DNA from: a virus
Taxonomy: Duplodnaviria > Caudoviricetes
Reading direction: 5' to 3' (one strand)
DNA: 52,618 nucleotides
Virus record (IMG/VR): IMGVR_UViG_3300026519_000002
Location: 1-52,618 of that record
Shown here: piece by piece, positions 8,117-52,618 of the stretch
How positions within the stretch are numbered: position 1 is the first letter of the stretch
How the letters are laid out: every line of letters begins with the position of its first letter
Made by a program: the position numbers and the translations under genes
Notes under the pieces: generated by a model
What the model was told of the DNA's origin: nothing
Database searches by the model: none
The model's input: only the letters and a program-made list of their open reading frames with translations

Positions 8117-8151
8117 GCGCCCACTATGATGATAACTGTCAGGCCTGTCAA
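8117..8151 (-). promoter_or_regulatory. Leftward sigma70 promoter (leaderless) with overlapping operator
   Basis: TTGACA(8151-8146), 17-bp spacer, CATAGT(8128-8123), 6 nt, ATG; TGAT-N4-GTCA at 8130-8141. Confidence 0.75.
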
Positions 8152-8172
8152 GTAACAGACCTTGTTGCTGCC

Positions 8173-8188
8173 GCTGACATTCGTCAGC
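8173..8188. promoter_or_regulatory. Palindromic operator GCTGAC-N4-GTCAGC
   Basis: Perfect 6-bp inverted repeat; same core as the sites at 8130-8141 and 9618-9629. Confidence 0.6.
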
Positions 8189-8196
8189 ATCGACCG

Positions 8197-8810
8197 GTGG
8201 ACGACACCATCGGTGCGCGAATCGCCTACATGCTCGACGGTGGCTACTGCGTGATGCGCGTAGCGAGGCCCCAGGGGCACGAGGCCTGATCCGCGCTCAT
8301 CTCGGGCCGGGCGCTATCATTCGGCTGCGAGGACTCGCCAGCGTCGATGCGGCGCTCAGCTACGTTCACGGCCAGCCGCGCATCGCGGTTCGGCGTGGGC
8401 TGTCTCCAGCACGCGAGCGCTGGGCGCTGATCCATGAGCTCGCCGAGTGGCACCTCGGCGAGATCGGCTACGAGGAGCCCGACGTCGAGCTCGTGGCCGA
8501 GGCCATCACCGCGGCGCTGGTGCTGCCACATGATGCCTTCCGAGCGGCGCTCGCCGATCACGGTCCACGGTTCGGCCCGCTCGGCGATGCCTTCGTGGCC
8601 ACGCCCACAGCGGCCGCACTACGCCTCGGAGAGGTGACTGGATGGCCCCTGGCCGTGGTTGCTCCCACCGGCGTGCGGGTTCGAGGAGATGACTTCGGCT
8701 GGCCCCCCCCACCGGAGCTCGAGCGACTCGCGAAGGCGCGGCGGATGCCCCTCGGGGTCACGAAGCATCGCCTACCTGAACGCAGGCGATGGGCCCTGAT
8801 GGCGAGCTAG
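8197..8810 (+). pseudogene. ImmA/IrrE-like metallopeptidase, frame-disrupted or with a non-canonical start
   Basis: The frame open from 8178 encodes RERWALIHELAEWHL...EAITAALVLP but has no ATG/GTG/TTG until 8493. GTG 8197 is in another frame and stops at 8289. Confidence 0.6.
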
Positions 8811-10573: not shown

Positions 10574-10920
10574 TCTACGCGACCGAGAACGACCACCGTT
10601 ACCCGTCCCGGGTGTCCCACGAGGCGACCACCGAGCCACCGCCGTCGAGCGGTCGGGCCAAGCTGACCTTCATCCGCGACGAGCTCATGCTGGCCGCCCA
10701 TGCGGCCGGCATGCCGGGCAACGACGCGGCGCGCGCAGTCGCGAACGTCCTGCACGCGCTCATCCTGACCGTGCACGACGCGTGCGAGGCGCGCGAGTAC
10801 ATCGTGGGATCAAGCTATGCGTACGAGTTCGAGCACGGGCAGGCCATGCTCGATGCGCTCGAGGCGGCGTGCCGGCTGACCGCCGCTGAGCGGGTTCGTC
10901 GGCAAGGGGGTGGGTCGTGA
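10570..10920 (+). CDS. Hypothetical protein (116 aa)
   Basis: ATG 10570 (ATGA overlap, GGAG RBS). Confidence 0.55.
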   Translation: MIYATENDHRYPSRVSHEATTEPPPSSGRAKLTFIRDELMLAAHAAGMPGNDAARAVANVLHALILTVHDACEAREYIVGSSYAYEFEHGQAMLDALEAACRLTAAERVRRQGGGS

Positions 10921-12449
10921 CGACCGCCAGCCTTCCGATCGCCCACCTCGCCCCCTGCGGCTTCAACCTGCGGGATGAGGTGGGCGACGTCGGCGAGCTC
11001 ACGGCCACCATCCGTGAGCACGGCGTGCTTCAGGCGCTGGTGGTGCGTCCTGCCGGCGACGTCTACGAGGTCATCGTGGGTCACCGCCGCCTTGCCGCGG
11101 CGACGGAGGCAGGACTCGAGACCGTGCCCTGTCAGGTGCGCGAGCTCACCGACGAGCAGGCGATCCAGCTCATGCTCGTCGAGAACCTGCAGCGGGCCGA
11201 CATTGCCCCGCTCGACGAGGCGGACGGCTACTGGCGACTGCACCACGACGACAAGCTGAGCGTTGAGCAGATCGCCGGCAAGGTCGGCAAGAGCGCAAGC
11301 TACGTCCGCAAGCGGCTCAAGCTCAACGACCTGAGCGCCAAGGGTAAGAAGGCTCTGGCCGCCGGCGAGCTGCCCGTGGGCGCGGCGCTGCTGCTCGCGC
11401 GGATCCCGACGGCGAAGCTGCAGGACGAAGCGCTCGGCAGCATGCGCTCGACGGTCGAGGACCCGGTGCCGCTTCTTGAGGCGCGTCAGGCGACCCAGCG
11501 CTACCAGCTGCCGCTCGCCGGCGCGCCCTTCGACATCACCGCCAAGCTCCTCGCCAGGGCCGGCGCGTGCACGACCTGCGAGCACCGCACCGGCAACCAG
11601 AGCGAGCTGTTCGACGACGCCCCCAGCGCAGACCTGTGCACCAACCCGCCTTGCTACGACAAGAAGCGCGCCGCCGCGTGGAAGGCCCGAGCCGCCGAGC
11701 ACAAGGCTGCGGGCGGCAAGGTCCTGAGCAAGGACGAGGCGGCGAAGCTGTTCCTGTATGGGGGCTACCTCAACAACCGCGACTACGTCGAGCTCGATCG
11801 CCCACCCGGCTACAGCGATCTGCCCATCAACAGCAAAAAGAAGTGGAAGACTCTGCTGGGCAAGGACGCCAAGAGTGAGGTCGTCTTGGCCCAGGACAAG
11901 TCGGGCAACGTCCGCGAACTGATCCCCCGCAAGCGAGCCATCGCGTTGGCGAAGGCCAAGCACCCCGAGCTCGCCACCAAGCCCAAGAAGGCGAAGGCCG
12001 ACCCGGCCGAGGCGAAGCGCCGGCGTGAGGCCGCCATTCACCGCGCCGCGAGCCAGGCAGCCATCGCCGATCTCGTCGCAGCGGTGCAGGGCGACGGGGG
12101 CGAGATCGGCATCTCGACGTGGCGTCTGATTGCCGAGGCCTTCGCGGACGGCTCGTGGAGCGACACCATGCGCGACGTCCTCAAGCGCCGCGACATCAAG
12201 CCGGGGAGCGACGTTCGGGAGACCTTTCAGGTGCTCATCGACGCCGGGGGCGAGGACGACGCGCCGCTCGACACCGGCGAGCTGAGCGCGCTGGTCATCG
12301 AGCTCATCGTCACGCGCAATCTCTACAACACGTGGGGGGACAACCCCGCAAAGCGCCTCGAGCAGGCCTGCGATCTCTACGGTGTGGATCTCGCGCAGCA
12401 TCGCAAGGCCGCCGCGAAACGCGAGACCAAGAGCAAGAAGGGGGCGTGA
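10917..12449 (+). CDS. parB: ParB/Spo0J family protein with C-terminal extension
   Basis: GVLQALVVRP, IVGHRRLAA, ENLQRADI, HTH; later CxxC...C...C motif. Confidence 0.9.
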   Translation: MTTASLPIAHLAPCGFNLRDEVGDVGELTATIREHGVLQALVVRPAGDVYEVIVGHRRLAAATEAGLETVPCQVRELTDEQAIQLMLVENLQRADIAPLDEADGYWRLHHDDKLSVEQIAGKVGKSASYVRKRLKLNDLSAKGKKALAAGELPVGAALLLARIPTAKLQDEALGSMRSTVEDPVPLLEARQATQRYQLPLAGAPFDITAKLLARAGACTTCEHRTGNQSELFDDAPSADLCTNPPCYDKKRAAAWKARAAEHKAAGGKVLSKDEAAKLFLYGGYLNNRDYVELDRPPGYSDLPINSKKKWKTLLGKDAKSEVVLAQDKSGNVRELIPRKRAIALAKAKHPELATKPKKAKADPAEAKRRREAAIHRAASQAAIADLVAAVQGDGGEIGISTWRLIAEAFADGSWSDTMRDVLKRRDIKPGSDVRETFQVLIDAGGEDDAPLDTGELSALVIELIVTRNLYNTWGDNPAKRLEQACDLYGVDLAQHRKAAAKRETKSKKGA

Positions 12450-12721
12450 TGTACGACACTTGGCTCACCGACTGGGGGCGCTGTGGTGCGCCCGACGACG
12501 TGCCGGAGTGCCCGTGTTGTGGGGGCGAGACAACCGACCTCAAGGGGGCGGACGACGATGGTGTTGTCTTCGTCATCGTGCAGCTGTGTGCGGTGTGCGA
12601 CTGCTGCGGCTGTGAGCGCGACGGCAGCCACCCGCGGCACGTCTGTGCGTCGTGCGGCGGTGACGCCACATGGGTGCAGGTCTGGTCGGACCACGACCAG
12701 ACGGAATTGGAGGCAGCGTGA
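12449..12721 (+). CDS. Cys-rich small protein (90 aa)
   Basis: CPCC, CAVC, CCGC, CASC; TGATG-coupled. Confidence 0.55.
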   Translation: MYDTWLTDWGRCGAPDDVPECPCCGGETTDLKGADDDGVVFVIVQLCAVCDCCGCERDGSHPRHVCASCGGDATWVQVWSDHDQTELEAA

Positions 12722-13473
12722 TGGAGACCACGGAACGACAGAGCAAGCTCGCGATCGCGCTGGTAGAGGCGCAGAAGAAGACGCGAGCGTTGGCGAAGGA
12801 CGCGGAGAACCGCCACCATCGCTACTACTACACGTCCTCGGAGTACATGATAGAGGCGTGCCGGGCCACGCTGAGCCAGTGCGGCTTGAGCTTGTCGCTC
12901 GAGGAGTGGACGTTCGAGCCGGGCGAAGCGAAGGGGGTCGGTGGCAAGGACGCCATCGGGCGCGTGCAGCTCACCTACTGCCTGCTGCACACCTCGGGCG
13001 AGTCGCGGCCCATCCGGACGAGCACCTTCGTGTGCCCGGAGAAGGGGCGCCCGCCGGACAAGGCGGAGTTCGCAGCGATGACCGAGAACCTGGCCTACAC
13101 GCTGCGGTCGGTGCTCCTCGTGCCTCGCAACGACGATCTTGCCGAGGACATCTCTGGGCGCGATGACAGCGATTACGAGCCGCGCCGGTCCGACCCGACG
13201 CCACCTCGCCAGAGCGAGCCGCGACGACTCGACGAGGTGCTCGATGGTGACGACATCCCCGACTCGTCGGGCGATCAGCTGGCCGACGAGTTCATCCAGG
13301 AGATCCGCCGGCTCGGCGAGCTTGAGCCGTCGCAAGAGGTGCTGGCCAAGCTCGAGCGACTTCCGCCTGAGATCAAGGGCCTCAACTTCGCTCGTCCCAC
13401 CTACCTCCGGATCGTGAAGATCTACAACCCGATCATGAAGGACGTGCGCGAAGCACTGGGCGTGCCGGCGTGA
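12721..13473 (+). CDS. ERF-family single-strand annealing protein
   Basis: LAIALVEAQK...KDAEN....YYY, HTSGE and AMT...YTL patterns; next to an exonuclease and SSB. Confidence 0.7.
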   Translation: METTERQSKLAIALVEAQKKTRALAKDAENRHHRYYYTSSEYMIEACRATLSQCGLSLSLEEWTFEPGEAKGVGGKDAIGRVQLTYCLLHTSGESRPIRTSTFVCPEKGRPPDKAEFAAMTENLAYTLRSVLLVPRNDDLAEDISGRDDSDYEPRRSDPTPPRQSEPRRLDEVLDGDDIPDSSGDQLADEFIQEIRRLGELEPSQEVLAKLERLPPEIKGLNFARPTYLRIVKIYNPIMKDVREALGVPA

Positions 13474-14690
13474 CCACCATGTTCCTCCCGACCTTCAGCC
13501 GCCTCGACGTGGCCGCGCGCTGCGTCTACCCCTGGACCAGCCGTCAGCGCTGGCCCAAGCAACCTCCAAACGCGTTCCGAGGGGTCGGCTCGGCGGTGTC
13601 GTCGGTCGCCGAGTGCCTGGCGGTATGGGGGGACGCCCCCATCGATGCGATTGCCGAGGCGCAGGGGCTCACGCCCAGCGACACCACCAAGCTCGGTCAG
13701 ATGGCCGTCCACCTGCGGGAGCTGATCGAGGACGAAGCGACGAGAACCTCGTGGCGCGTCGCGGAGCAGGCGCTCGCCTACGACCTGCGAGCAGGCACCG
13801 CGCGGGAGCTACGTCAGGCGCACCCGCGGGACTACTCCGACCGCAAGCCCCACGAGATGAGCGGCACACCCGACCTGGTGTTCGTTCGCGATGGCGCGCT
13901 CGTGGTGCGGGACTACAAGACTGGTCGGTACACCTGGGGGAAGAACCCCGCCGAGTCGCGCCAGCTGCGGGCCCTCGGCCTCTGTGCGGCGCGTGCCTAT
14001 GGCTTCCACGAGGTCACCCTGGAGCTCGTCCAGGTGGACGCCGACGGCGTCCGTGCACGCCCCGAGCCCCTCGACGCCTTCGAGCTCGCGCTCTGTGCCG
14101 ACGAGCTCTGTGGCATTCACGACCGCATTGCCTACGAGGGGGAGCGTCCTCCGCCGAATCCGGGGCACTGGTGCGACTCGGCCTACTGCCCATTGGCCGC
14201 AACGTGTCCCGCGACGACGAAGGCGCTGGCGACGGTGGCGAAGGTCTCCGATCTGGAATATCCGCTCACGGACGAGATCACGTCTCCCGAGCATGCCGCC
14301 TACCTCCTCGAGCGCCTGGCGGTGGCGAAGACAGCCATCGAGACGATCCGCCATGCCGTCAAGGAGTACGCGCGCGAGCACGGCCCGGTGCCCCTGAACA
14401 ACGACAAGCTCTATGGCGTGGTGCTCCACGATGGACGGGAGCGCTTCGACCTGTCGGTGGACGGCGCGCTCGAAGCGATCCGGAAGCACCTCGGTCCCTT
14501 CGCCGCGGCTGCAGCCGTCTCGAGCAAGACGAGCAAGACGGCAATCGAGGTGGCCGCGAAGGCCGAGCAGACCAAGCGTGGCCAGGGGGTGCGGCGAGCG
14601 CGTGCGCTCATGGACGAGCTGCGCGAGCTCGGGGCGCTCAAGCGTGGCGCCCCCTACGAAACGATCGAAGCGTTCACGCCCAAGGGGTGA
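13470..14690 (+). CDS. PD-(D/E)XK (Cas4/RecB-like) exonuclease
   Basis: GTPDLV...VRDYKTG, QL..L and C-terminal WC...YCP....C cluster. Confidence 0.85.
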   Translation: MTTMFLPTFSRLDVAARCVYPWTSRQRWPKQPPNAFRGVGSAVSSVAECLAVWGDAPIDAIAEAQGLTPSDTTKLGQMAVHLRELIEDEATRTSWRVAEQALAYDLRAGTARELRQAHPRDYSDRKPHEMSGTPDLVFVRDGALVVRDYKTGRYTWGKNPAESRQLRALGLCAARAYGFHEVTLELVQVDADGVRARPEPLDAFELALCADELCGIHDRIAYEGERPPPNPGHWCDSAYCPLAATCPATTKALATVAKVSDLEYPLTDEITSPEHAAYLLERLAVAKTAIETIRHAVKEYAREHGPVPLNNDKLYGVVLHDGRERFDLSVDGALEAIRKHLGPFAAAAAVSSKTSKTAIEVAAKAEQTKRGQGVRRARALMDELRELGALKRGAPYETIEAFTPKG

Positions 14691-14717
14691 GCTTCGCGAA
14701 CAACGATTGAGGACAAA

Positions 14718-15197
14718 ATGGCAAACGGATTGAACGAAGTCTACTTGATGGGCAACCTTGGCGATGACCCCGAGCTGCGGTTCACCCAAGGCGGCACCGG
14801 GGTGCTCAACCTCCGGCTCGCGACCAACGAACGCATCAAGCGCGACGGCGAGTGGGAAGACCACACGGAGTGGCACAACGTGGTGGTGTGGGGGAAGCGA
14901 GGTGAGAGCCTAGGCATGATCCTCGTCAAGGGCAGCAGGGTGCTCATCAAGGGCAACCTCCGGACCTCAAGCTACGAGGGCAAGGATGGCGTGAAGCGGT
15001 ACAAGACCGAGATCCACGCCCGAGAGGTGGTCCTCACAGGCGACGGCGGTGGACGGAGCGATCGGGGGCGCGACGACGACCGCCGCGATCGCCGCCGGGA
15101 CCGCGACAGCGACCGTGGGCGCCGTCGTGACGATCGGGGGCGGGATCGGGATCGAGACCGGGGACGCGGGCGTGACCGCGACGAGGACTTCCGGTGA
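14718..15197 (+). CDS. ssb: Single-stranded DNA-binding protein with an RD-rich tail
   Basis: LNEVYLMGNLGDDPELRFT...TEWHNVVVWGK...KG.RV.I.G.LRT. Confidence 0.95.
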   Translation: MANGLNEVYLMGNLGDDPELRFTQGGTGVLNLRLATNERIKRDGEWEDHTEWHNVVVWGKRGESLGMILVKGSRVLIKGNLRTSSYEGKDGVKRYKTEIHAREVVLTGDGGGRSDRGRDDDRRDRRRDRDSDRGRRRDDRGRDRDRDRGRGRDRDEDFR

Positions 15198-16525
15198 GCA
15201 CCACCATCGTCCGCCTCGAGGCGCAGAACGTGATGCGCCTGCGCGCCGTGCGCATCGACGCCGATGGCAAGCCCGTCATCGTCGTCGGCGGCAAGAACGG
15301 CAACGGCAAGTCGAGCGTGCTGCGCTCGATCGAGATGGCGCTCGGGGGCAAACGGGCCATGCCCCCGAAGCCAATCCGCGACGGCGAGCGACGCGCAGAG
15401 GTGACCGTCCAGCTGAGCAACGGCATGATCGTTACCCGGACGATCGACGCTGCCGGCGGCACCAAGCTCGTCGTCACCGACGCCGAAGGGGGCAAGGTCC
15501 GTTCGCCCCAGGCGGTGCTCGACAAGATGTTCCGCACGCTGGCGATCGATCCGCTGGCCATGTCTCGTATGCGGCCCGCCGAGCAAGCAGCCATTCTGCG
15601 GGAGATCGCCGGCGTCGACACCACCGAGCTCGACGGCCGGCGCCAAGCTACCTTCGACCAGCGTACCGACGTCAACCGCGAAGTGAAGCGGCTCAAGGCT
15701 CAGCTCGACGCCGCGCCGCACCACCCCGACGCCCCGGCCGAGGAGGTGAGCATGGCCGAGCTCGCGTCCGAGCTCGAGCTGGCCAGCGAGCAAAATCGCG
15801 ATGTGCGGTCGAAGCAAGACAACCTCGAGGATGCCCGACGCGAGTTGGACGAGGCCGAGGACGAGGTGGCACGTCTCGAAACGGAGCTGCAGCGGGCCCG
15901 GAAGCGTCGGACTGTGGCCGCTGACGATCTGGCACGTGCTCAGCAAGCCGCCGCCGCGGCCGAGCTCGTCGATATCACCCCAATCCGCGAGCGCATGCGG
16001 ACGGCCGAGGCCACCAACGCCAAGGTGCGTGACAACGCCGCGCGCCAGAAGCTCCTCGAGGAGCATCGCGAAGCGCAGCGCCGTGCCGACGCGCTCTCCG
16101 ACGAGCTCGATGTCATCGACGAGGCGCGCGCCGCCATGTTGGCCGCGGCCAAGCTCCCCATCCAGGGGCTCGGCTTCGACGGTGAGGGCGTGACGCTCGA
16201 CGGCGTGCCGCTCGAGCAGGCTAGCCAGGCGCAGCAGCTCCGGCTCTGGACCGCAGTCGGGTTCCGACAGAACCCCGAGCTCAAAGTGCTGCTCGTCCGG
16301 TCGGGCTCGGACCTCGACGAGGACAGCTTGCGGCTGCTGGGCGAGCTCGCCGCGGCAGAAGGGGGCGAGGTCTGGCTCGAGCGCGTGAGCACCGGGCAGG
16401 AGTGCTCCGTGGTCATTGAGGACGGGATGGTGCGGGCGGTCGCGGAGGCTGACACCGACCCGCCGCCGTCGACGGACCGGGCGCCGGCCCTAGCAGCCGT
16501 CGAGGAAAAGCTCGACTTCGTGTGA
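15194..16525 (+). CDS. SMC/Rad50-like AAA ATPase (coiled coil)
   Basis: GKNGNGKSS Walker A, long coiled coil, degenerate signature and Walker B (SQAQQ; SDLDED). Confidence 0.8.
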   Translation: MSTTIVRLEAQNVMRLRAVRIDADGKPVIVVGGKNGNGKSSVLRSIEMALGGKRAMPPKPIRDGERRAEVTVQLSNGMIVTRTIDAAGGTKLVVTDAEGGKVRSPQAVLDKMFRTLAIDPLAMSRMRPAEQAAILREIAGVDTTELDGRRQATFDQRTDVNREVKRLKAQLDAAPHHPDAPAEEVSMAELASELELASEQNRDVRSKQDNLEDARRELDEAEDEVARLETELQRARKRRTVAADDLARAQQAAAAAELVDITPIRERMRTAEATNAKVRDNAARQKLLEEHREAQRRADALSDELDVIDEARAAMLAAAKLPIQGLGFDGEGVTLDGVPLEQASQAQQLRLWTAVGFRQNPELKVLLVRSGSDLDEDSLRLLGELAAAEGGEVWLERVSTGQECSVVIEDGMVRAVAEADTDPPPSTDRAPALAAVEEKLDFV

Positions 16526-17563: not shown

Positions 17564-18970
<1,407 letters not shown>

Positions 18971-19227: not shown

Positions 19228-20472
19228 CTAAGCCGCCATCAGGTACGCCAGCGGCGCCTCGGGCCCCACGAGGGTCCGGTCCTGCCACCGGATGGCGTCG
19301 CGCTCGTTGCCACCGATGCAGCGGACCACCTGCCGGTCGTCGAATCGGGTCGTGGCCGTCGTGATGTGGCCCTGTCCGGCCTGCCCCCCGAGCTCGACGG
19401 GGAGCGGACTCTGGCCGTTGCGGCCGTAGATCACCGCGTCGCCCGGCATGGGCCTGTAGCCGTCGCTGTGGAGCCGCAGCAACCCGCGGCCGTGGCTGTC
19501 CGCGCAGAGCTCCCGGACGCTCACACGCAGGCCGTGGGGCGGCGTGTCGCCGACGAGCAGCACCCGCAGCAGCAAGTACGACCGGAACGCGGCGCACCAG
19601 GCGTCCTCGTCTCGAGGTAGCGGCAGCGGCAGCCCGCCGATCCACCACGGCTGACCGTCATCGGTGAGCCCCCGGAATTCGCCGCCACGCCGGCAGTGGC
19701 GGCTGTACTCGAGGATGCGCGGGTTGTGACGAGCGCCTGGGATCTCTTTGACGTTGTGCCCGAATTCGAACCCCGCCATCTCCACCAGGCGTTGGCCGAT
19801 CGTCAGCGACTGCCACCACCCGACGTCCACCCAGGGCTCGACGGGGCCGCTTGGCGGCGCGGAGTCCGTCCGACCGCCCACGAGGAACGGGACGAGGTGA
19901 TCGCGGAGCACCTGCGGGCCGTGCTCGGTCAGCGCGCGGCCGTGCTGTTGCTTCATCGTCTCGCCCGGCTTGGGATCGCGATGGATGATGACCCCCTCGG
20001 CCTGCATCTGCCGGAGCGTTTCTGCCGTCTTGGTCGTGCTCGGATACGTGTAGGGGTCGACGTCGGTGTGCGTGACGATCAGGTGTCCTCCGTCGTCGGC
20101 GTACTTCTTCACGTGGCTCAGCTGCGCCGCCGAGCCATGCAGCCCGTCGAGGAACACGCAGGCGTCGATGGCGCTCCGATCGAGGGGGTGCGTCAGCAAC
20201 CCGTCGCGGGCGTACCAGCAGCCTGCCGAGTACCCCACGAAGGCGAGCTTGCTCACGCTGACCCCGGGTGCGTACTTGTCGAGCGTGGCGGGCAGCAGAC
20301 GACCATCGCCACGACGAAGGTTCGCGGCTTCGGTCTTGAACACGGACGAGAACCCGGCGATGGGGATGAGCTTGAGCACGAAGTCCCCGAGGGGACGCAG
20401 CGCCTCTTCGTACTTGGCGAGCGTGGCGCGGTCGGGCGCACCGGGCGTGGCGAACAGAACGAGCGTGGTCAT
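19228..20472 (-). CDS. Endolysin: alpha/beta-hydrolase domain + CHAP/NlpC-P60-like peptidase
   Basis: GYSAG elbow, FLDG and QHG; C-terminal HNPRILEY, AWCAAF, PGDAVI, GHI, GGN. Confidence 0.8.
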   Translation of the reverse strand: MTTLVLFATPGAPDRATLAKYEEALRPLGDFVLKLIPIAGFSSVFKTEAANLRRGDGRLLPATLDKYAPGVSVSKLAFVGYSAGCWYARDGLLTHPLDRSAIDACVFLDGLHGSAAQLSHVKKYADDGGHLIVTHTDVDPYTYPSTTKTAETLRQMQAEGVIIHRDPKPGETMKQQHGRALTEHGPQVLRDHLVPFLVGGRTDSAPPSGPVEPWVDVGWWQSLTIGQRLVEMAGFEFGHNVKEIPGARHNPRILEYSRHCRRGGEFRGLTDDGQPWWIGGLPLPLPRDEDAWCAAFRSYLLLRVLLVGDTPPHGLRVSVRELCADSHGRGLLRLHSDGYRPMPGDAVIYGRNGQSPLPVELGGQAGQGHITTATTRFDDRQVVRCIGGNERDAIRWQDRTLVGPEAPLAYLMAA

Positions 20473-21833
20473 GAGTCCTCCAAGGGCAGCTCGAATGTGA
20501 AGGCGGCGCCGCGTCCGGGGCCGTCGCTCTCGGCCCAGATCCGACCGCCGAGCTCGTCGGTGACCTGGCGGCAGAAGCTCAGCCCGAGCCCGTGCCCAGG
20601 CGTGCTGTCATGCGCCCGGAAACCCGCGTCGAAGAGGCGCTCGGACTGCTCGGGTTCGAATCCACGGCCATGGTCGCGCACCGTCACACGGACGCTGCCG
20701 ACCGACTCCGAGGCGGTCACGGTGATCCGCGGAGCCGTGCCGCCGTACTTGGCCGCGTTCGCGACGAGGTTGAGCAGGATGGTCCGTGCCGCCATCGGCA
20801 TCCGCACGTCGGCACCGGTCACGTGGACACTCGCGCCGTGCTTCTCGATGTGGTTGCGTTTGCTTACGAGCACGTCATCCATCAGCGCCGCGAGCGTCAC
20901 GAGCTCGCGCTTGCCGGTGAGGGATCCGTAGATCCGCTCGATCGCCACGACCTGGCGGTGGATGTGCTCGGCCGCCTCGGCGACGTCCGCAGCCGTCACC
21001 CCCGACGTCGGGTTGGAGGCCATGCGCGCCAGGTGCACGACGTGGTTGAGCGGCGAGCGAAGGTCGTGGCAAGTCTCACCCACGAACAGCGCCATTCGGC
21101 TGTTCACCGCCTCACGATGCTCGCGCTCCGCCTTCAGCTTGGACTCGGCCTGAATGACCCGACGCGTCCTCGCGTTGGTGAGCGCCATCGCCGCCGCGAA
21201 CGCCAACGAGAAGCCCACGATCACGGGCGACCCAGTGGCTACCGCCAGCGCCAGCCCGGTCGCCCCAAGACCGCCGGCCATTGCGAGCGATGCCGCTCGC
21301 TCCCCAAGGTTCGCACTCACCACCATTCCCCCTCCCACGAGGACGAAGGCCCCCGACGTGTGCACGGCCATGTCCGTCCACGGCCCCCACGAGTAGCTAG
21401 CGCTCGTGCCGCTCACGTACCCGAGGAGCGTCGTCCCTCCCGCCACCGCCACGAGCACCCCGGCCACAGCACGAACTCTCCGACCGGCGAGAAGGCCCGC
21501 GCTCAGAACGAACGAGCCGGCCGTGGCCGGAGACATCAGTCCGGGCCGGTAGGTCGCGGTGGTTGTCCAGGGCTCGAACAGCAGCGTAGCGGTCCCGGTG
21601 TCCACGCTTGCGTAGTCAAGGAGCGCCAAGATCCCGAGCGCCGCTGCCCCCAAGACCTCAACGCCCCGTCCCCGCCACAGCGCCGAGCCCGCAAGGCAAA
21701 ACCCGAGCGCCGTGTTGGGCTGCATCGGGGCCGCACCTGGGATCACCTGGACGAGCGGCGGCACCCGCAGCGCCCAGCCCACGAGCACCAGGGCGCCCAG
21801 CGCGAACACGACAGCCGCGGCGACACGGATCAC
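20469..21833 (-). CDS. Membrane sensor histidine kinase (454 aa)
   Basis: GTG 21833 (GTGA overlap). About 7-8 TM segments with MQPNTA/MSPATA/MAVHTS repeats; H-box CHDLRSPL, N-box NLVANAAKY, DHGRG, GHGLGLS, GGRIW. Confidence 0.92.
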   Translation of the reverse strand: MIRVAAAVVFALGALVLVGWALRVPPLVQVIPGAAPMQPNTALGFCLAGSALWRGRGVEVLGAAALGILALLDYASVDTGTATLLFEPWTTTATYRPGLMSPATAGSFVLSAGLLAGRRVRAVAGVLVAVAGGTTLLGYVSGTSASYSWGPWTDMAVHTSGAFVLVGGGMVVSANLGERAASLAMAGGLGATGLALAVATGSPVIVGFSLAFAAAMALTNARTRRVIQAESKLKAEREHREAVNSRMALFVGETCHDLRSPLNHVVHLARMASNPTSGVTAADVAEAAEHIHRQVVAIERIYGSLTGKRELVTLAALMDDVLVSKRNHIEKHGASVHVTGADVRMPMAARTILLNLVANAAKYGGTAPRITVTASESVGSVRVTVRDHGRGFEPEQSERLFDAGFRAHDSTPGHGLGLSFCRQVTDELGGRIWAESDGPGRGAAFTFELPLEDS

Positions 21834-22567
21834 AGGAACACCCTCAACACCTCGATGATGACGGAAACGATGGCACCGAGACTGACACCGCCGATGTAGA
21901 CCTTCCCTTTTTCCTTCAGAGGCAGGTCTGAGAACGTTGAGGCCAGTCGTACGATGTCGTTCCGATTCGTCGTCGTCACCGACTCTGTCTGGGTCTGCCG
22001 CTGCTCGATGCGGTCCAGGCGGTCCAGGATGACCGCGTTGTCTCGACGGCTGTTGGCCAGCGCGCGCATCATCGAGCCCTCGCCCGGCTGCTCGTCGGCC
22101 AGCGTGTCGAGCTGGTCCGCCTCGTCGCGAGCCGCGTCCGAGATCACCTTCGTGTCTCGCGTGGCCGACCGGCGCAGCGCCGCAAACTCCAGCGCCCGGC
22201 GGATGTGCGCGGGCTCGGTCCCGGGCTTCTTTACGAGGAAGTCGTCCGCGCCCCCGTCGCGCATGATCCCCAACCGCACGACGTCGTCGGCGCAGCCGGT
22301 GTAGACGACGATCGGCGTCCCCTCGGCAGCCGACTTTACCGCGTCGAACGTGTGTCGCCCGCGGCTGTCGCCGAGATCGAGGTCCTGCAGGACCACGTCG
22401 AAGGGGCGACCCTGGCGCTTGGCCTGGTCGAGCGCCGCTAGCGTGGACGCCAGCGAGAACGCCTCGACCACGTCGTGGTCGCCACGCAGATCGGCGCACG
22501 CGATCCGACGGTCGAAGTCCTGGTCGTCGCTGACCAGGATCCGCAGCTTGCCCGGGGCTCGGTACAT
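21830..22567 (-). CDS. Response-regulator receiver fused to coiled coil + C-terminal TM helix
   Basis: D14-D15, D62 (VLQDLDLGDS), T90 and K113 conserved; LDRLDRIEQRQ coiled coil; hydrophobic end VYIGGVSLGAIVSVIIEVLRVFL; strong RBS AAGGAGG. Confidence 0.9.
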   Translation of the reverse strand: MYRAPGKLRILVSDDQDFDRRIACADLRGDHDVVEAFSLASTLAALDQAKRQGRPFDVVLQDLDLGDSRGRHTFDAVKSAAEGTPIVVYTGCADDVVRLGIMRDGGADDFLVKKPGTEPAHIRRALEFAALRRSATRDTKVISDAARDEADQLDTLADEQPGEGSMMRALANSRRDNAVILDRLDRIEQRQTQTESVTTTNRNDIVRLASTFSDLPLKEKGKVYIGGVSLGAIVSVIIEVLRVFL

Positions 22568-22582
22568 CAGCCCTCCTTGTTG

Positions 22583-22849
22583 TCAGGCCGAACCATCAGC
22601 CTCGGGGAACTTGTCGTCGAGCGCTCCTTCCCAGCCTTTCTCAGCCCGCACCTGGGCGAGCAGCTCAGGCGACCGACGAAGGCGCGCGATCGTCCCCTGC
22701 GCGTCGGCACCGTCGCGGATCAGGTCGGCAGCCAAGCCCAGCGCCTCGCCGACGATGGGCCCCACCCCCTTGGCGCCAGGAATGGCCTCGAGCAGCGTGC
22801 CCACCGGGGACGCCATGTGCTCGAGCACGTCGGCGAGCGTCACGGACAT
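22583..22849 (-). CDS. Small amphipathic protein in the lysis cassette (88 aa)
   Basis: ATG 22849 with GGAGGTGG RBS; overlaps the lipoprotein 3' end. Confidence 0.55.
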   Translation of the reverse strand: MSVTLADVLEHMASPVGTLLEAIPGAKGVGPIVGEALGLAADLIRDGADAQGTIARLRRSPELLAQVRAEKGWEGALDDKFPEADGSA

Positions 22850-23265
22850 GGCACCACCTCCGGGAGCGCGGGGAGCTTTTTGGAAAGTCCGAGCTCGACG
22901 GCGACGTCCTCGAGCTCGCACCAGGCGGCGACGAACGCCGCGGCGCTCGCCGGGTCGCTCACCCCCTGCTCGAGCGCCGTCGCCCAGGCGTTATGGGCGG
23001 CGCCCAACGCGTCGACAGCGGCCCAAACCGGGCGCCACCGGGTGCGGTGAGCCTCGAGCAGCGCGACCGCCTCCTGACGGCTCTTGGCGCGCTCGATGAG
23101 CAGCTCCCCCTGTCGGGCGTAGGTCTCCGCGAGCTGGACGAGCACGGGGTTGGTGGCCACGGCGATGGTGTTGGCCACCTGCGCCTGCGCCCGCGCCTGC
23201 ACCTGCGTGGACGACGGGGGGCACCCCAGCGCCACGAGCGCCAGCACGATCACCAGCCACCTCAC
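22840..23265 (-). CDS. Helical lipoprotein, spanin candidate (141 aa)
   Basis: MRWLVIVLALVALGC lipobox; GTGA-coupled; lysis cassette position. Confidence 0.6.
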   Translation of the reverse strand: MRWLVIVLALVALGCPPSSTQVQARAQAQVANTIAVATNPVLVQLAETYARQGELLIERAKSRQEAVALLEAHRTRWRPVWAAVDALGAAHNAWATALEQGVSDPASAAAFVAAWCELEDVAVELGLSKKLPALPEVVPCP

Positions 23266-23405
23266 AGCGCCGCCCTCACGGCGCAGTCCTTGGGCTCGGG
23301 TAGGTGGCCGTAGACGAAGTACTCGAGCACGGCCAGCGTGCTCGGGTGCAGCGACTCTGCCAGCTCGGCGGGCGGCCAAACGACGCTTGCTTCGGCGTAG
23401 GTCAC
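23262..23405 (-). CDS. 47-aa ORF (MTYAEA...LEYFVYGHLPEPKDCAVRAAL), possibly internally deleted
   Basis: Not in the ORF track; GTGA-coupled at both ends. Confidence 0.55.
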   Translation of the reverse strand: MTYAEASVVWPPAELAESLHPSTLAVLEYFVYGHLPEPKDCAVRAAL

Positions 23406-23596
23406 TTCGCCGGGGCCTTCGGGGGAAGCGGCGTGACCGCCTGCCGCGTGACGATCGCCAGGACGAACGCGGTCACCGCGAGAATGGCGCCCATCTGCTC
23501 CTCGGTGATGTGCAGGCCGAAGGACAGAACGAGGGCGAGGACAGCCTGGACGAGGCCGAGCAGGACCGCCGGCTCACGCTTGATGAATTCGAGCAT
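23402..23596 (-). CDS. Holin-like protein (64 aa, 2 TM)
   Basis: REP N-terminus, two hydrophobic helices, basic tail RQAVTP...K; first gene of the lysis operon. Confidence 0.75.
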   Translation of the reverse strand: MLEFIKREPAVLLGLVQAVLALVLSFGLHITEEQMGAILAVTAFVLAIVTRQAVTPLPPKAPAK

Positions 23597-23625
23597 GCCG
23601 GGAAGTTGGCACCTTCCCTTGCTGC

Positions 23626-23667
23626 CCCGGCGTTACGGCCCTCCCGTACCGACCCGGCGTTACGGCC
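23626..23667. repeat. 15-bp direct repeat pair CCCGGCGTTACGGCC in a divergent intergenic region
   Basis: Exact copies at 23626-23640 and 23653-23667. Confidence 0.8.
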
Positions 23668-23702: not shown

Positions 23703-24107
23703 ATGGCCAACATCCTCTACGACAACTTCCTCGAGCAGGTGCTCCAGGGCAACGTCGACCTCCTGACGGTCAACATCAAGGCGGTCCTCGTCGACCTGGC
23801 GGACTACACCCCCAACGCGTCGACCCACGGGAACCTGGCCGATATCCCGGCCGCGGCTCGGGTCGCCACGAGCGGCAACCTCACCGGCAAGACGGTGACC
23901 AACGGCACCTTCGACTCCGATCCTCCCGTGCTGCCGAGCGTAACCGGTGACCAATCCGAAGCTGTGGTGCTCTACGTCGACACAGGGGTCGGAGCGACAT
24001 CGACGCTCATCGGCCTGTGGGACACGGCGAGCGCGGGGCTGCCGGTGACCCCGGACGGCAACAACATCAACGTGAACCCGAACGCGGCCGGCTGGTTCTC
24101 GCTCTAG
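23703..24107 (+). CDS. Putative virion structural protein (134 aa)
   Basis: Start ATG 23703. MANILYD...IKAVLVD...GLPVTPDGNNI...GWFSL resembles small phage appendage/fibre-associated proteins. Confidence 0.6.
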   Translation: MANILYDNFLEQVLQGNVDLLTVNIKAVLVDLADYTPNASTHGNLADIPAAARVATSGNLTGKTVTNGTFDSDPPVLPSVTGDQSEAVVLYVDTGVGATSTLIGLWDTASAGLPVTPDGNNINVNPNAAGWFSL

Positions 24108-24123: not shown

Positions 24124-26772
24124 GTGGCCTACGCCGACTTCAACGGGATCACAGGTCTCGTCAGGGCTTGCCTGACGAGCGACGGGGGACCCTCGCCACG
24201 TGCTTCCGCCGACGGCACGGCCTGCACGGGGTGGCCCGATTCGACAGGCACCAGCGACGCGACGCTGGCCGGTACCGCCCCCGAGATCAACACCAACCCC
24301 ACCGGGGGGCTGCAGGGGCCGTGTGCGCTCCACGTCGCGGAGAACGGCTTCGGCTTCGCTGGCGTCGTCAATGGACTCACCAACTGGACGATCGCAACCT
24401 GCCTGCGTGCCGACTCGCTGAGCAGCTTCCGAAACATCTTCTCAAGCCAAGGCGGCTCGGGTGAGGGGTCGCTCTACGCCAATGCCGGGGCGCTGACCTA
24501 CGAGGAAGGCTCGACAGAAACGCTCGGGTTCACGCTTTCGACCGGCACCGTCTACACCATCATCTTCACCGCCGACGCGAGCAACTACCGCTGCTACGTC
24601 GACGGCACGCTGGTTTGGACCTCCACCATGACGCCAGCGGATCAGCCGGCGGCGCTCGAAACAGCGGCCTATGGGGGTTCGGGCGCGGTGTGGTCAGGCG
24701 ACTGGTGGGCGATCGCCATCTACGCCACCACCGTCTCGGGTGGGGACATCGCAACGCTCCACGCCGCCCTGCTCGAGGAGGCCAACGGCGCGGCGGCCGA
24801 GCAGGACATCGACCTGACCACGATCGCGTCGGGACACACCGTCCACGACCTGGCCTCGGTCACCAGCGGGTCGGAGCAGACCATCAACCTCACCACCATC
24901 GCCAGCGGTCACACCCTGCCGGCGTTGGCCAGCGTCGCGGCTCAGCCCGAGCAGGACATCGACCTAGCCGCGATCCCGTCGGGGCACGTGGTGCGAGACC
25001 TGGCTTCTGTCACCCTCGTCGGCGCGCTGCACGACGCCTTCGAAGGGTCGGGGACACTGGACGGCTACACAACCGTGAACGCGTCGGACCTGCCCAACGT
25101 CACCGAGGCCAATGGCCGTTACCTCGCCGAGCTCGCCGACAACACCGCTGACGTTACGACCTGGTTCAACAGCGACGCCGGACGCGGCGACTTCAAGGCC
25201 ACCGAGTTCCCTTTCGAGATCATCGTCCGCAACATCGGGATCGGCGTCTCGGCCGCCGACACCCAGGGGACCCCCACGCTGTTGGGGAACCCCTACAACT
25301 TCTGCGGCATGCAGGTGAACGCGGACTTGGGCAGCCCCGAGCAGGACTACCGGCACTTCGTGGTGGGGTACCGAGGGGCTACCGGGTTCGGGGGCTCGGA
25401 ACGCACCATCGAGGCCAAGACGAACGCCAGTGGCTCATCGAGTGTCAACGACGTCGGCACCAACGCGATCACGGGAACGCGCGCCGACTTCCGGATCGTC
25501 GGCAGCGCCGGCAAGGCCATCACCTTCCAATGGCAGGAGCCCAACCAGCTCGGCCCTGGCGGCCAGCCTGACCCAGCACAGGACAGCTGGAGCTCGGCCC
25601 ACGCCTTCCCCGGGAGCGAGCCCGCCTGGCCCGACACCGTCTACGTGGGGCTCGTCACCTACGCCTTCGGGACCGACGGGGTCCCCTTCGTCGGGACCGC
25701 CGACGCCATCGAGGACATCCTCAGCGCGCAGAACGTCGACCTCGGTGCCGTCGCCAGCGGTCACCAGGTGCACGATCTCGAGAGCGTCACCATCAAGGGC
25801 AGCGACCAAGACATCGACCTCACTACCATCGCCTCGGGCCACGTCGTGCACGATCTCGCCAGCGTCGTCAGCGGCCCCGCCAACGACGTCGACCTGGGTG
25901 CGCTCGGACCGACCGTCACCGTGCACGCTCTCACGAGCGTCGGCTCCGGGCCGGCGCTCGAGGTAGACCTGGGCGCGCTGCCCTCGGGGACCGTGGTGCA
26001 CGACCTCGCCAGCGTGGACGTGGTGTCGGGGCAGACCATCTCGCTCACCACCATCGTGAGCGGCCACCAGATTCACGAACTGGCGAGCGTGGCGGCCCAG
26101 GCTGCGCAGGACGTCGACCTCACCGCCATCGCCAGCGGCCGGACCGTGCATGACCTGGCGAGCCTCACAATGGACCCCGATCTCGACGTCGACCTCACCG
26201 CGATTCCGAGCGGGCGCGTCGTTCACGATCTCGACAGCGTCGCGACGGTCCAGAGCATCACGCTGCAGGGCCGCGCCTCAACGCTGACCGTTCACGACCT
26301 CGCCTCGCTGACCGTCCAGGCCGAGCTCGACGTGGACCTAGCCACGATCGCGTCAGGGCACGTGGTGCACGACCTCGCCAGCGTGGTCATTTTGCAGCTC
26401 GCCGCGTCGACCACCATCACGGCTTACAGCCGCCCTGCTACGCTGATCGACATCGAGGAGGATCCCGTGCCCCACACCGCAGGCGACCGCGTTGAGACCA
26501 CCATCCGCTTCCGCGTAGGAGGCGTGCTGACCGCCCCGGACTCGTGGTCGATTCACGTGAAACCTCGACGGGGCGCCGCCTTTGAGGTGCCATCCGGGGA
26601 CGCCTCCATCTCCGAGGTGCAACCGGGCGAGTACGTGTGGTCGCAGCAGACGAGCCACGACGACGCCACCCACGTCGGGCGCTGGGACTACACCGTCGAC
26701 AGCGACGGCAGCGTGGCCCCTGGGGCGCGCAATGGGTTCTTCGAAGTGCGGCGGGCGGCGGTGGTGGCCTAA
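24124..26772 (+). CDS. Repeat-containing fibre/adhesin: lectin(LamG)-like domains, 12 x ~25-aa repeats, C-terminal Ig-like domain
   Basis: YVDG-containing beta-rich N-terminus; repeats DxDLxxIxSGHxVHDLASV; beta-sandwich C-terminus. Confidence 0.7.
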   Translation: MAYADFNGITGLVRACLTSDGGPSPRASADGTACTGWPDSTGTSDATLAGTAPEINTNPTGGLQGPCALHVAENGFGFAGVVNGLTNWTIATCLRADSLSSFRNIFSSQGGSGEGSLYANAGALTYEEGSTETLGFTLSTGTVYTIIFTADASNYRCYVDGTLVWTSTMTPADQPAALETAAYGGSGAVWSGDWWAIAIYATTVSGGDIATLHAALLEEANGAAAEQDIDLTTIASGHTVHDLASVTSGSEQTINLTTIASGHTLPALASVAAQPEQDIDLAAIPSGHVVRDLASVTLVGALHDAFEGSGTLDGYTTVNASDLPNVTEANGRYLAELADNTADVTTWFNSDAGRGDFKATEFPFEIIVRNIGIGVSAADTQGTPTLLGNPYNFCGMQVNADLGSPEQDYRHFVVGYRGATGFGGSERTIEAKTNASGSSSVNDVGTNAITGTRADFRIVGSAGKAITFQWQEPNQLGPGGQPDPAQDSWSSAHAFPGSEPAWPDTVYVGLVTYAFGTDGVPFVGTADAIEDILSAQNVDLGAVASGHQVHDLESVTIKGSDQDIDLTTIASGHVVHDLASVVSGPANDVDLGALGPTVTVHALTSVGSGPALEVDLGALPSGTVVHDLASVDVVSGQTISLTTIVSGHQIHELASVAAQAAQDVDLTAIASGRTVHDLASLTMDPDLDVDLTAIPSGRVVHDLDSVATVQSITLQGRASTLTVHDLASLTVQAELDVDLATIASGHVVHDLASVVILQLAASTTITAYSRPATLIDIEEDPVPHTAGDRVETTIRFRVGGVLTAPDSWSIHVKPRRGAAFEVPSGDASISEVQPGEYVWSQQTSHDDATHVGRWDYTVDSDGSVAPGARNGFFEVRRAAVVA

Positions 26773-51742: not shown

Positions 51743-52545
51743 GCCGCGGCCATCTTGTCGAGCGCCGCCTCGATGAGCGCTCCGCTGCCATTGCGCACCT
51801 CGAGCCCGCACGCCGCCCGAAGCACCGTCAGCCGGCTCACCCCTGCCTGTTTGGCCACCTTGGCGTCGCCATGCGCCTTGAGCAGCGCGGCGAGCGCCTT
51901 CCGCTGTCCTTCGTTCAAGACCACGTTGGGAGAGGTGGCACGCAGCGGCGTCGCAGACCGCGCATGGTCACTTGTAACAACGCTCTGACGATTCCCCATC
52001 GCGGAATCGTTGAGGGATTCGAGGTGGAGCACGAAAAAGTTGGGCTGCTTGCCCTGGTGCCAGTCGCGGATCACCTCCACGTGCCCCGCGACCTCGAGCT
52101 GCTCGAGGGCGTAGCGCACCTGATCGCGGCTCAGGCTCGTGGCCAGCTGCAGCTGCGCGTGGCTCACCGGCTCCCCACGAGCACGCAGCAGTGCCTGGGC
52201 GACGAGCAGCTGCGTCTCGGTGAGCGCCGCGGCGCCGACCATCCCCAGCTGCTGGGCGAGCTGCCCCTGCTCGGTGAGGTGCCACTGCGCGTCGTGGCAC
52301 CACAGCGCCTCGCCCTGCGCCTGCATCCACGCCACGCAGTAGCGGGGGTCGACCGGCAGGTGCTCCTCGTCGAGGGCCCAACCGAGGATCTCCCGCATCG
52401 TCGCCGGCGCCTCGAGCAACCGCGTGCGCACCGGCTGGCTCCACGCCTCGAGGCGCGGATCGTCGCCAGCCGGCTCGAGCTCGAGCCACCGATGCGGCGG
52501 CCGCATTCGCTGCCGCGGGCCTTGGCGTCGGCGACGGCGGGTCAT
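51739..52545 (-). CDS. Multi-HTH DNA-binding protein
   Basis: wHTH (LQLATSLSRDQVRYALEQLEVAGHV) and C-terminal HTH (VAKQAGVSRLTVLRA). Confidence 0.7.
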   Translation of the reverse strand: MTRRRRRQGPRQRMRPPHRWLELEPAGDDPRLEAWSQPVRTRLLEAPATMREILGWALDEEHLPVDPRYCVAWMQAQGEALWCHDAQWHLTEQGQLAQQLGMVGAAALTETQLLVAQALLRARGEPVSHAQLQLATSLSRDQVRYALEQLEVAGHVEVIRDWHQGKQPNFFVLHLESLNDSAMGNRQSVVTSDHARSATPLRATSPNVVLNEGQRKALAALLKAHGDAKVAKQAGVSRLTVLRAACGLEVRNGSGALIEAALDKMAAA

Positions 52546-52618
52546 CGCTCACGCCCCTCTTCGCCGGCTGGGACAAGTGCGGGATCCCACGGTGTCACGA
52601 CGCTCGGCGTAGGTCAGC
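52492..52618 (+). repeat. Terminal direct repeat, copy 2 (assembly circular overlap)
   Basis: Identical to 1-127. Confidence 0.95.

Follow-up and report, generated by a model that had tools for sequence, protein, structure and literature searches.

A predicted two-component system with a membrane-anchored receiver inside the lysis operon of a temperate phage

The moment at which a phage lyses its host is set by holins and antiholins through protein–protein contacts. The antiholins RI and RIII of T4 and the dual-start antiholin S107 of lambda set or delay holin triggering by direct binding, and phosphorylation plays no part in this. XhlA-type small lysis proteins, like tail-anchored coiled-coil proteins of the inner membrane, consist of a coiled coil and, after it, a membrane helix at the C-terminus, and the lysis enzyme set of mycobacteriophages includes alpha/beta-hydrolases, the LysB-type esterases. 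In the chromosomally encoded LytSR two-component system, LytR is the DNA-binding output and acts on transcription. According to the accessible part of one source, LytSR controls the holin-like/antiholin-like lrgAB genes in Gram-positive bacteria (PMC3507848). The accessible text of a second study describes phoR and phoB in soil phages and interprets them as auxiliary genes that act in phosphate regulation of the host (PMC10987575). Here we analyze a locus of the IMG/VR virus record IMGVR_UViG_3300026519_000002 in which a histidine kinase and a receiver-domain protein (REC protein) are encoded among the lysis genes of a phage. The window, i.e. the whole stretch of 52,618 nt that was analyzed, is the entire contig C103 of a genome comprising 143 contigs and 2.54 Mb.

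The kinase and the REC protein belong to a group of seven packed minus-strand genes in the order holin, 47-aa open reading frame (ORF), lipoprotein, 88-aa ORF, REC protein, kinase and a 414-aa endolysin (Table 1). This operon had been described in an earlier note made from the sequence alone, and all seven ORFs are present with the order and coordinates it gave. Its observation that most junctions overlap also holds, with overlaps at five of the six junctions, including those at either end of the kinase gene. The junctions of the pair consist of overlaps (GTGA, ATGA) and of a 15-nt spacer occupied by a ribosome-binding site, so that there is no space for an intergenic promoter. The GC content at third codon positions (GC3) ranges from 0.83 to 0.92 across all seven frames, as in the structural genes of the phage, and GC content and codon use of the REC and kinase genes are phage-like (0.67–0.70 vs. 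a host median of 0.73). A scan for promoters and terminators returned no promoter and two terminator-like sites, which corresponds to chance level, and no RNA family was found in an Rfam scan.

The kinase contains a HATPase_c domain (Pfam, E 2.5e-25, 89.5 bits at a cut-off of 26.4). HisKA stays below its cut-off of 26.9 with 13.7 bits, and the homologue P0071 reaches 24.5 bits. The earlier note had called the H, N, G1 and G2 boxes intact, and H256 (within CHDLRSPLN), N355/N359, D387-G389-G391 and G413-G415-G417 are invariant in three of three kinase homologues. Based on hydropathy, residues 1–225 are made up of some eight hydrophobic segments joined by very short loops, followed by the predicted DHp domain with H256 and the ATPase domain. 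All Pfam matches of the kinase at E ≤ 10 (HATPase_c, HATPase_c_2, a weak HisKA and VapB_antitoxin) are located at residues 249–452, and no Pfam family covers residues 1–225. This sensor region shares 36% identity (E 1e-16) with the N-terminal membrane domain, likewise without Pfam annotation, of a cellular PAS kinase. Ten chromosomal kinases, labelled as Chitinophaga, Planctomycetota, Limisphaerales, Verrucomicrobiota, Alphaproteobacteria, Pseudomonadales, Xanthomonadaceae and Gemmatimonadaceae, match the phage kinase at 28–36%, and none of their neighbors resembles the phage receiver. Because the Pfam-less N-terminus recurs in chromosomal PAS- and CHASE-kinases of several phyla, we consider it an unnamed membrane sensor module. 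Motifs seen in this domain are MQPNTA, GLMSPATA and MAxHT. The 11 other kinase matches in the host cover the C-terminal half only (from query residue 162 on, most of them from ∼212). The host genome has no kinase bearing this sensor domain, which argues that the phage kinase is not a recent copy of a host gene.

The REC protein is recognized by Pfam Response_reg with 36.7 bits (cut-off 30.2). Among the receiver residues listed in the earlier note, D14/D15, D62 and T90 align with solved receivers and are invariant in the homologue, as is the conserved lysine; the assignment of the latter to K113 is uncertain, as it may be K114, directly before P115. The protein can be divided into the receiver domain (residues 1–125), an acidic linker (126–166), a heptad helix (167–222) and a C-terminal membrane anchor (223–245). 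Within residues 167–222, the heptad a/d positions are occupied by LIVMF in 50% of cases, compared to 15% elsewhere, and a single, strongly hydrophobic C-terminal segment extends over residues 221–245 with a Kyte–Doolittle (KD) peak of 2.15. The anchor helix is glycine-rich and carries a conserved buried glutamate, E239. The coiled coil and C-terminal transmembrane (TM) segment proposed in the earlier note thus agree with our analysis. The same cannot be said of its comparison of this tail to holins or XhlA. Residues 121–245 match no Pfam family even at E ≤ 10, XhlA included, and the matches of the protein in PHROGs are limited to residues 6–158. An exhaustive phmmer search with residues 121–245 against 1.84 billion representatives retrieved the protein itself and two long multi-stretch proteins, which are probably coiled-coil noise; this search yielded neither a holin relative nor a receiver-less relative of the C-terminal domain, which the earlier note had suggested looking for. 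The ESM Atlas gave no usable feature match for the tail, and the structure matches were generic long helices. As judged from its domain architecture, the receiver appears to have no DNA-binding or enzymatic output and to end in only a heptad helix and a membrane anchor. Taken together, the sequence features support the view that the pair is a two-component system both complete and intact, with translational coupling to the lysis genes on either side.

Relatives of the pair are rare. In a word-indexed search of 5.8 billion proteins, a single full-length relative of the receiver, P0002 (255 aa, 60% identical), was found among 1683 scored candidates. Homologues of the kinase are P0070 (59%) and P0071 (47%, on a contig of 20,477 bp). 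The longest contig of both P0002 and P0070 is 2871 bp; in view of this match in length, the two are perhaps encoded together on one contig, which suggests that kinase and receiver are conserved as a pair. The earlier note had pointed to chromosomal REC-TM/kinase pairs as the homologues that would speak against a link to lysis. None was encountered as the closest homologue, and the sole REC-TM relative lies on the 2.9-kb contig, the flanks of which are unread. Between the phage receiver and P0002, identity amounts to 78% in the receiver domain, 44% in the linker, 59% in the heptad region and 30% in the anchor. The heptad region contains a single indel of exactly seven residues, the anchor keeps E239-V240, and a membrane-proximal block (TTTNRN...LP) is conserved in the tail.

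Searches among phages gave a similar picture. The operon region found no match by blastn against phages, and neither did the receiver by tblastn. IMG/VR scans with the receiver, the kinase, a kinase alignment (A3) and a receiver alignment (A4) revealed no relative. None was found in a contig scan of genomes with the endolysin alone. In 60 related genomes, a set that includes the unpublished genome G041, matches stayed at the level of the receiver domain (E 1e-9 or weaker, query residues 5–141), and the two genomes of the same genus showed none. The neighboring phrog_644 gene was also tried as a handle and rejected, as the six IMG/VR loci it identified have nothing else in common with the cassette. 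A kinase catalytic core is present in 57 of 50,697 phage records, with at most 30% identity.

Turning to the lysis genes around the pair, the first gene product matches the PHROGs family phrog_9752 “holin” (E 7e-12), scores 17.8 bits with Pfam Phage_holin_9, under the cut-off of 27, and shows two hydrophobic segments. Judged by its sequence, it is a holin: a small membrane protein of a recognized family with an endolysin nearby. An internal dual start, from which an antiholin could arise, is absent from its sequence. The holin is 46% identical to an ORF upstream of the endolysin homologue at locus L013. The lipoprotein, a conserved constituent of related lysis cassettes, has a 44% identical counterpart (E 4e-26) immediately ahead of the endolysin homologue at locus L015. 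For the 88-aa ORF, pairwise comparison with the small ORF of L015 gave an E value of 0.023, and homology is therefore not shown. With regard to spanins, the lipobox is present, and the operon contains no ORF with an N-terminal TM segment plus coiled coil, as would be expected of an i-spanin-like protein. At L013, an ORF of 100 aa with an N-terminal TM segment and a coiled coil is located just upstream of the holin; as a candidate relative of the REC tail it was dismissed (pairwise E 0.018, not significant). Coordinates related to lipoproteins or spanins in these relatives are 210–641 in L015 and 8129–8431 and 8610–8840 in L013.

The 414-aa protein itself has no Pfam match, and at least 64 homologues were found. 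An alignment of 33 members of this family revealed the invariant residues S82 (GYSAG), D109, H112, H177, C293, H369, N389 and E390, and 11 of the 33, the query not among them, match Pfam CHAP. AlphaFold (AF2) with the 33-sequence alignment predicted two domains at a predicted local distance difference test (pLDDT) score of 92.6; folding from the single sequence (pLDDT 33) was of no use. Residues 1–200 resemble alpha/beta-hydrolases (Z 12–14.5; cutinases and esterases in Foldseek, E 7e-5), and residues 214–414 resemble NlpC1 (Z 11.4, root-mean-square deviation 3.0, 124 aligned residues). In BFVD, this C-terminal part matches phage proteins of the CHAP, TIGR02594, PlyB-like and Peptidase C51 types. 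According to this model, it is an N-terminal alpha/beta-hydrolase (S82/D109/H177) joined to a C-terminal CHAP/NlpC-P60 cysteine peptidase (C293/H369). The CHAP matches, the invariant C293/H369 and the NlpC1 fold match back the assignment made in the earlier note and justify the name endolysin, with the esterase domain as an extra. The substrate of this extra domain could be acetylated peptidoglycan or lipid or lipoprotein links of the outer membrane. Since hydropathy reveals no signal and no SAR-like hydrophobic segment, the endolysin would depend on the holin for access to the wall.

Based on these observations we propose, tentatively and with somewhat less than even confidence, that the pair is expressed late and tunes lysis as a phospho-switch at the inner membrane, by a non-transcriptional route. 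Such a rare arrangement may let the phage adjust the moment of burst. In this scenario, a temperate phage of a diderm host would have acquired a cognate kinase–receiver pair in its late lysis operon, in the gap between the small ORF and the endolysin gene, and the pair would be made late in infection alongside holin and endolysin. The kinase would read a state of the inner membrane, for example its energisation, the holin load or a perturbation by a superinfecting phage, and would phosphorylate D62 of the receiver. Dimerisation of the receiver would then shift the coiled-coil register and the membrane-proximal block at the bilayer, and this post-translational signal would advance or delay holin triggering, with the holin, the kinase or the bilayer as its possible direct target. 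Because no transcription would be needed, the output would be fast, which would fit the short late period.

We favor this proposal for several reasons. The pair is coupled to lysis genes, the receiver lacks a DNA-binding or enzymatic output and all residues of the phospho-chemistry are kept. Furthermore, the tail anchor is combined with a heptad pattern that tolerates an indel of exactly seven residues, and P0002 and P0070 point to pairing. Finally, the composition is phage-like, the holin lacks a dual start and no host kinase shares the sensor. Late co-expression and post-translational action at the inner membrane would follow from an intact pair that is coupled to lysis genes and has both a membrane sensor and a membrane output. 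Holin triggering is perhaps the most economical target of the pair, a view we hold at a little under an even chance. A more specific version, a phospho-antiholin in which the kinase senses membrane energisation, holin load or superinfection and the tail-anchored receiver directly advances or blocks holin triggering, is rather doubtful.

A number of points weigh against a role in lysis. Position is the sole link of the pair to lysis, and the REC tail seems to have no detectable relative among holins, antiholins and XhlA proteins. The 30% conservation of the anchor is more in line with a passive anchor than with a specific helix–helix partner. Moreover, the kinase is present in none of nine distinct endolysin-family loci with at least 3 kb of upstream sequence; 24 locus ids were examined, several of them duplicates, and nine distinct ones with that much upstream sequence were left after matching duplicate contigs. 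Three related cassettes lack the pair, which would therefore be dispensable and could be unrelated cargo.

The strongest alternative, unlikely in our judgment and still a serious one, is indeed that the pair is accessory cargo without relation to lysis, i.e. a moron-like insertion on a late or internal transcript that serves another purpose, for instance superinfection exclusion, host-envelope sensing or interference with host two-component signaling. The related cassettes are one argument for it. At L013, whose endolysin is 59% identical, the holin homologue ends ∼390 nt before the endolysin gene, and just a 76-aa lipoprotein and a small ORF lie in between. The order at L015 is lipoprotein, small ORF, endolysin, and at L014 the same order is headed by a holin-like small protein with two TM segments. 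Using tblastn with kinase and receiver, we found neither of them in 18 metagenome loci nor in six IMG/VR loci and L003, so the pair is missing from L013, L014, L015 and all other endolysin-family loci examined. Since these three cassettes lack both kinase and receiver, we regard the pair as an inserted, dispensable accessory module. A segment of ∼2.1 kb with the pair probably entered the operon downstream of the small ORF and upstream of the endolysin gene, or else was lost elsewhere; if inserted, it would have kept start/stop coupling and taken on the composition of the phage. The statement of the earlier note that this is not a free-standing moron is therefore right with respect to the tight coupling and less so with respect to dispensability.

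Other observations also speak for cargo. Phage-borne phoR and phoB have already been reported as auxiliary genes, as far as the accessible text of that study goes (PMC10987575), and PHROGs includes kinase and receiver families. In the Burkholderia phage vB_E427, the sole one of the 57 kinase records whose context was read, the kinase is found among cargo beside an efflux gene. On the other hand, there is no room for a promoter or terminator of the pair's own, stop/start overlaps on both sides, one of them with the endolysin gene, are unusual for morons, and the composition is fully ameliorated. PADLOC defence families gave no match to the receiver and only a faint one to the kinase (0.0035). 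The cargo explanation stays alive because the pair is dispensable in relatives and the tail shows no homology to lysis proteins.

It is improbable that the receiver tail is itself a membrane-damaging effector, i.e. a phospho-activated permeabiliser resembling a holin or an abortive-infection protein. Its single glycine-rich C-terminal hydrophobic helix with the conserved buried E239, immediately preceded by an oligomerising heptad helix, would suit such a function. However, a canonical holin is already there, the tail is homologous to no holin family, a tail anchor with nothing past the membrane makes a poor pore former and the anchor sequence is weakly conserved. Slightly less probable still, we think, is a kinase that mainly addresses host regulators, with the tethered receiver serving as a phosphate sink or scaffold that restrains it. 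The sensor domain is common to chromosomal kinases of many phyla and the receiver has no recognisable output, as this explanation would predict, but the conserved membrane-proximal block, the heptad-preserving indel and the paired homologues P0002 and P0070 favor a functional tail. The rarity of the pair, with one full-length receiver relative in 5.8 billion proteins, might suggest that a captured host operon has decayed here to a remnant without function, but this is very improbable, as the frames are intact, no catalytic residue has been lost and the receiver domain shares 78% identity with its homologue though the linker is down to 44%.

Returning to the phage as a whole, the window carries an exact direct terminal repeat of 127 nt (1–127 = 52492–52618). 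Because the two ends coincide over this length, it represents a circle of ∼52,491 bp and a complete phage genome, not an integrated prophage. The virion set of a contractile-tailed phage is complete (large terminase, portal, protease, major head protein, sheath, tape measure and baseplate), and the phage is temperate and contractile-tailed. Positions 18737–18781 (minus strand), opposite the 3′ part of the integrase gene, correspond over 45 nt to the 3′ end of tRNA-Met(CAT), reaching from its anticodon loop to CCA, and are identical to host contig C113:3733–3777 at 42 of 45 positions. This copy is a putative attP-like site and would tie the phage to this host or a close relative. An attP site inside the integrase coding sequence is an arrangement known from the Myxococcus phage Mx8. 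The host is a diderm, since LpxC and BamA are present in its genome, and the median GC content of its contigs is 73% compared to 68.7% for the phage. In the early region (10917–16525, plus strand), we noted genes for a ParB-like protein, an ERF-type recombinase, a PD-(D/E)XK nuclease (DUF2800) and an AAA_23 ATPase; helicases are also among the early genes.

A divergent region of 106 nt separates the holin operon from plus-strand genes of the tail-fibre type (23703–24107, phrog_644; 24124–26772). It contains a tandem repeat with a unit of 27 nt (Table 1), whose two exact copies are confined to this site, with no others in the genome. The repeat may be an operator or a (late-)promoter element. 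The second of the plus-strand genes (24124–26772) encodes an 882-aa tail-fibre-like protein with a weak match to Laminin_G_3, in which a motif of ∼19 residues, of the form DLTTIASGH.VHDLASV, occurs in many copies arranged in two blocks.

Table 1. Features of the lysis operon and its surroundings in the window.
Feature	Position	Strand	Remarks
Holin, 64 aa, first gene	23402-23596	minus	phrog_9752
Junction holin/47-aa ORF			GTGA overlap
47-aa ORF	23262-23405	minus	weak phrog_5120 match, E 2.6e-5; GC3 0.88
Junction 47-aa ORF/lipoprotein			GTGA overlap
Lipoprotein, 141 aa, helical	22840-23265	minus	signal MRWLVIVLALVALGC, lipobox LVALGC
Junction lipoprotein/88-aa ORF			10-nt overlap
88-aa ORF	22583-22849	minus	position matches small ORFs ahead of endolysin in relatives
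Junction 88-aa ORF/REC			15-nt spacer with AAGGAGG
REC protein, 245 aa	21830-22567	minus	Pfam Response_reg
Junction REC/kinase	21830-21833		GTGA
Histidine kinase, 454 aa	20469-21833	minus	HATPase_c
Junction kinase/endolysin	20469-20472		ATGA
Endolysin, 414 aa	19228-20472	minus	predicted alpha/beta-hydrolase + CHAP/NlpC-P60 peptidase
Tandem 27-nt repeat	23612-23665		each unit with CCGTAACGCCGGG; within 106-nt divergent region
Tyrosine integrase	17564-18970		Pfam scan

If the proposed phospho-switch is real, a His-Asp phosphorelay among lysis genes would give a virus a new means of linking the time of burst to a signal that it senses, and the output of a response regulator would be a membrane anchor instead of DNA binding or catalysis. 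Phosphorelay-gated lysis control would then be undescribed for any phage in the literature searched. Even as cargo, the pair would constitute a compact switch for membrane sensing that is complete in itself and of which very few relatives were detected, and it would mark an unnamed multi-TM sensor domain common to cellular kinases of several phyla. In agreement with the earlier note, which knew of no described example, our literature search, with supplements and most subscription journals outside its scope, found no two-component system in a phage lysis cassette and no membrane-anchored response regulator.

None of the systems compared here joins a phage lysis cassette, a phosphorelay and a tail-anchored receiver, and each resembles the locus in a different respect. 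The LysB enzymes of mycobacteriophages share with it an alpha/beta-hydrolase among the lysis enzymes, the BFVD matches being weak; in contrast to LysB, the hydrolase here shares one protein with a CHAP peptidase, and the host, which has LpxC and BamA, is a diderm. The phoR and phoB genes are likewise two-component genes on phage genomes, whereas the accessible text describes neither a neighborhood of lysis genes nor a membrane-anchored receiver for them (PMC10987575). XhlA-type proteins have the same succession of coiled coil and C-terminal membrane helix as the REC tail, which differs in being fused to a receiver domain and in having no XhlA match in Pfam at E ≤ 10. The antiholins of T4 and lambda perform the role proposed for the pair, a signal-responsive timing of the holin, but no sequence relation of these proteins to the REC tail was found. 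Membership of the LytSR type, defined by a LytS-type sensor domain in the kinase and a LytTR DNA-binding output in the regulator, was considered and rejected, as no Pfam family is found on kinase residues 1–225 or receiver residues 121–245. Nevertheless, LytSR shares with the phage pair a multi-TM, loop-poor membrane kinase tied to holin-type membrane proteins and cell lysis; unlike LytR, the phage receiver is membrane-anchored, has no DNA-binding domain and is encoded inside the lysis cassette of a phage.

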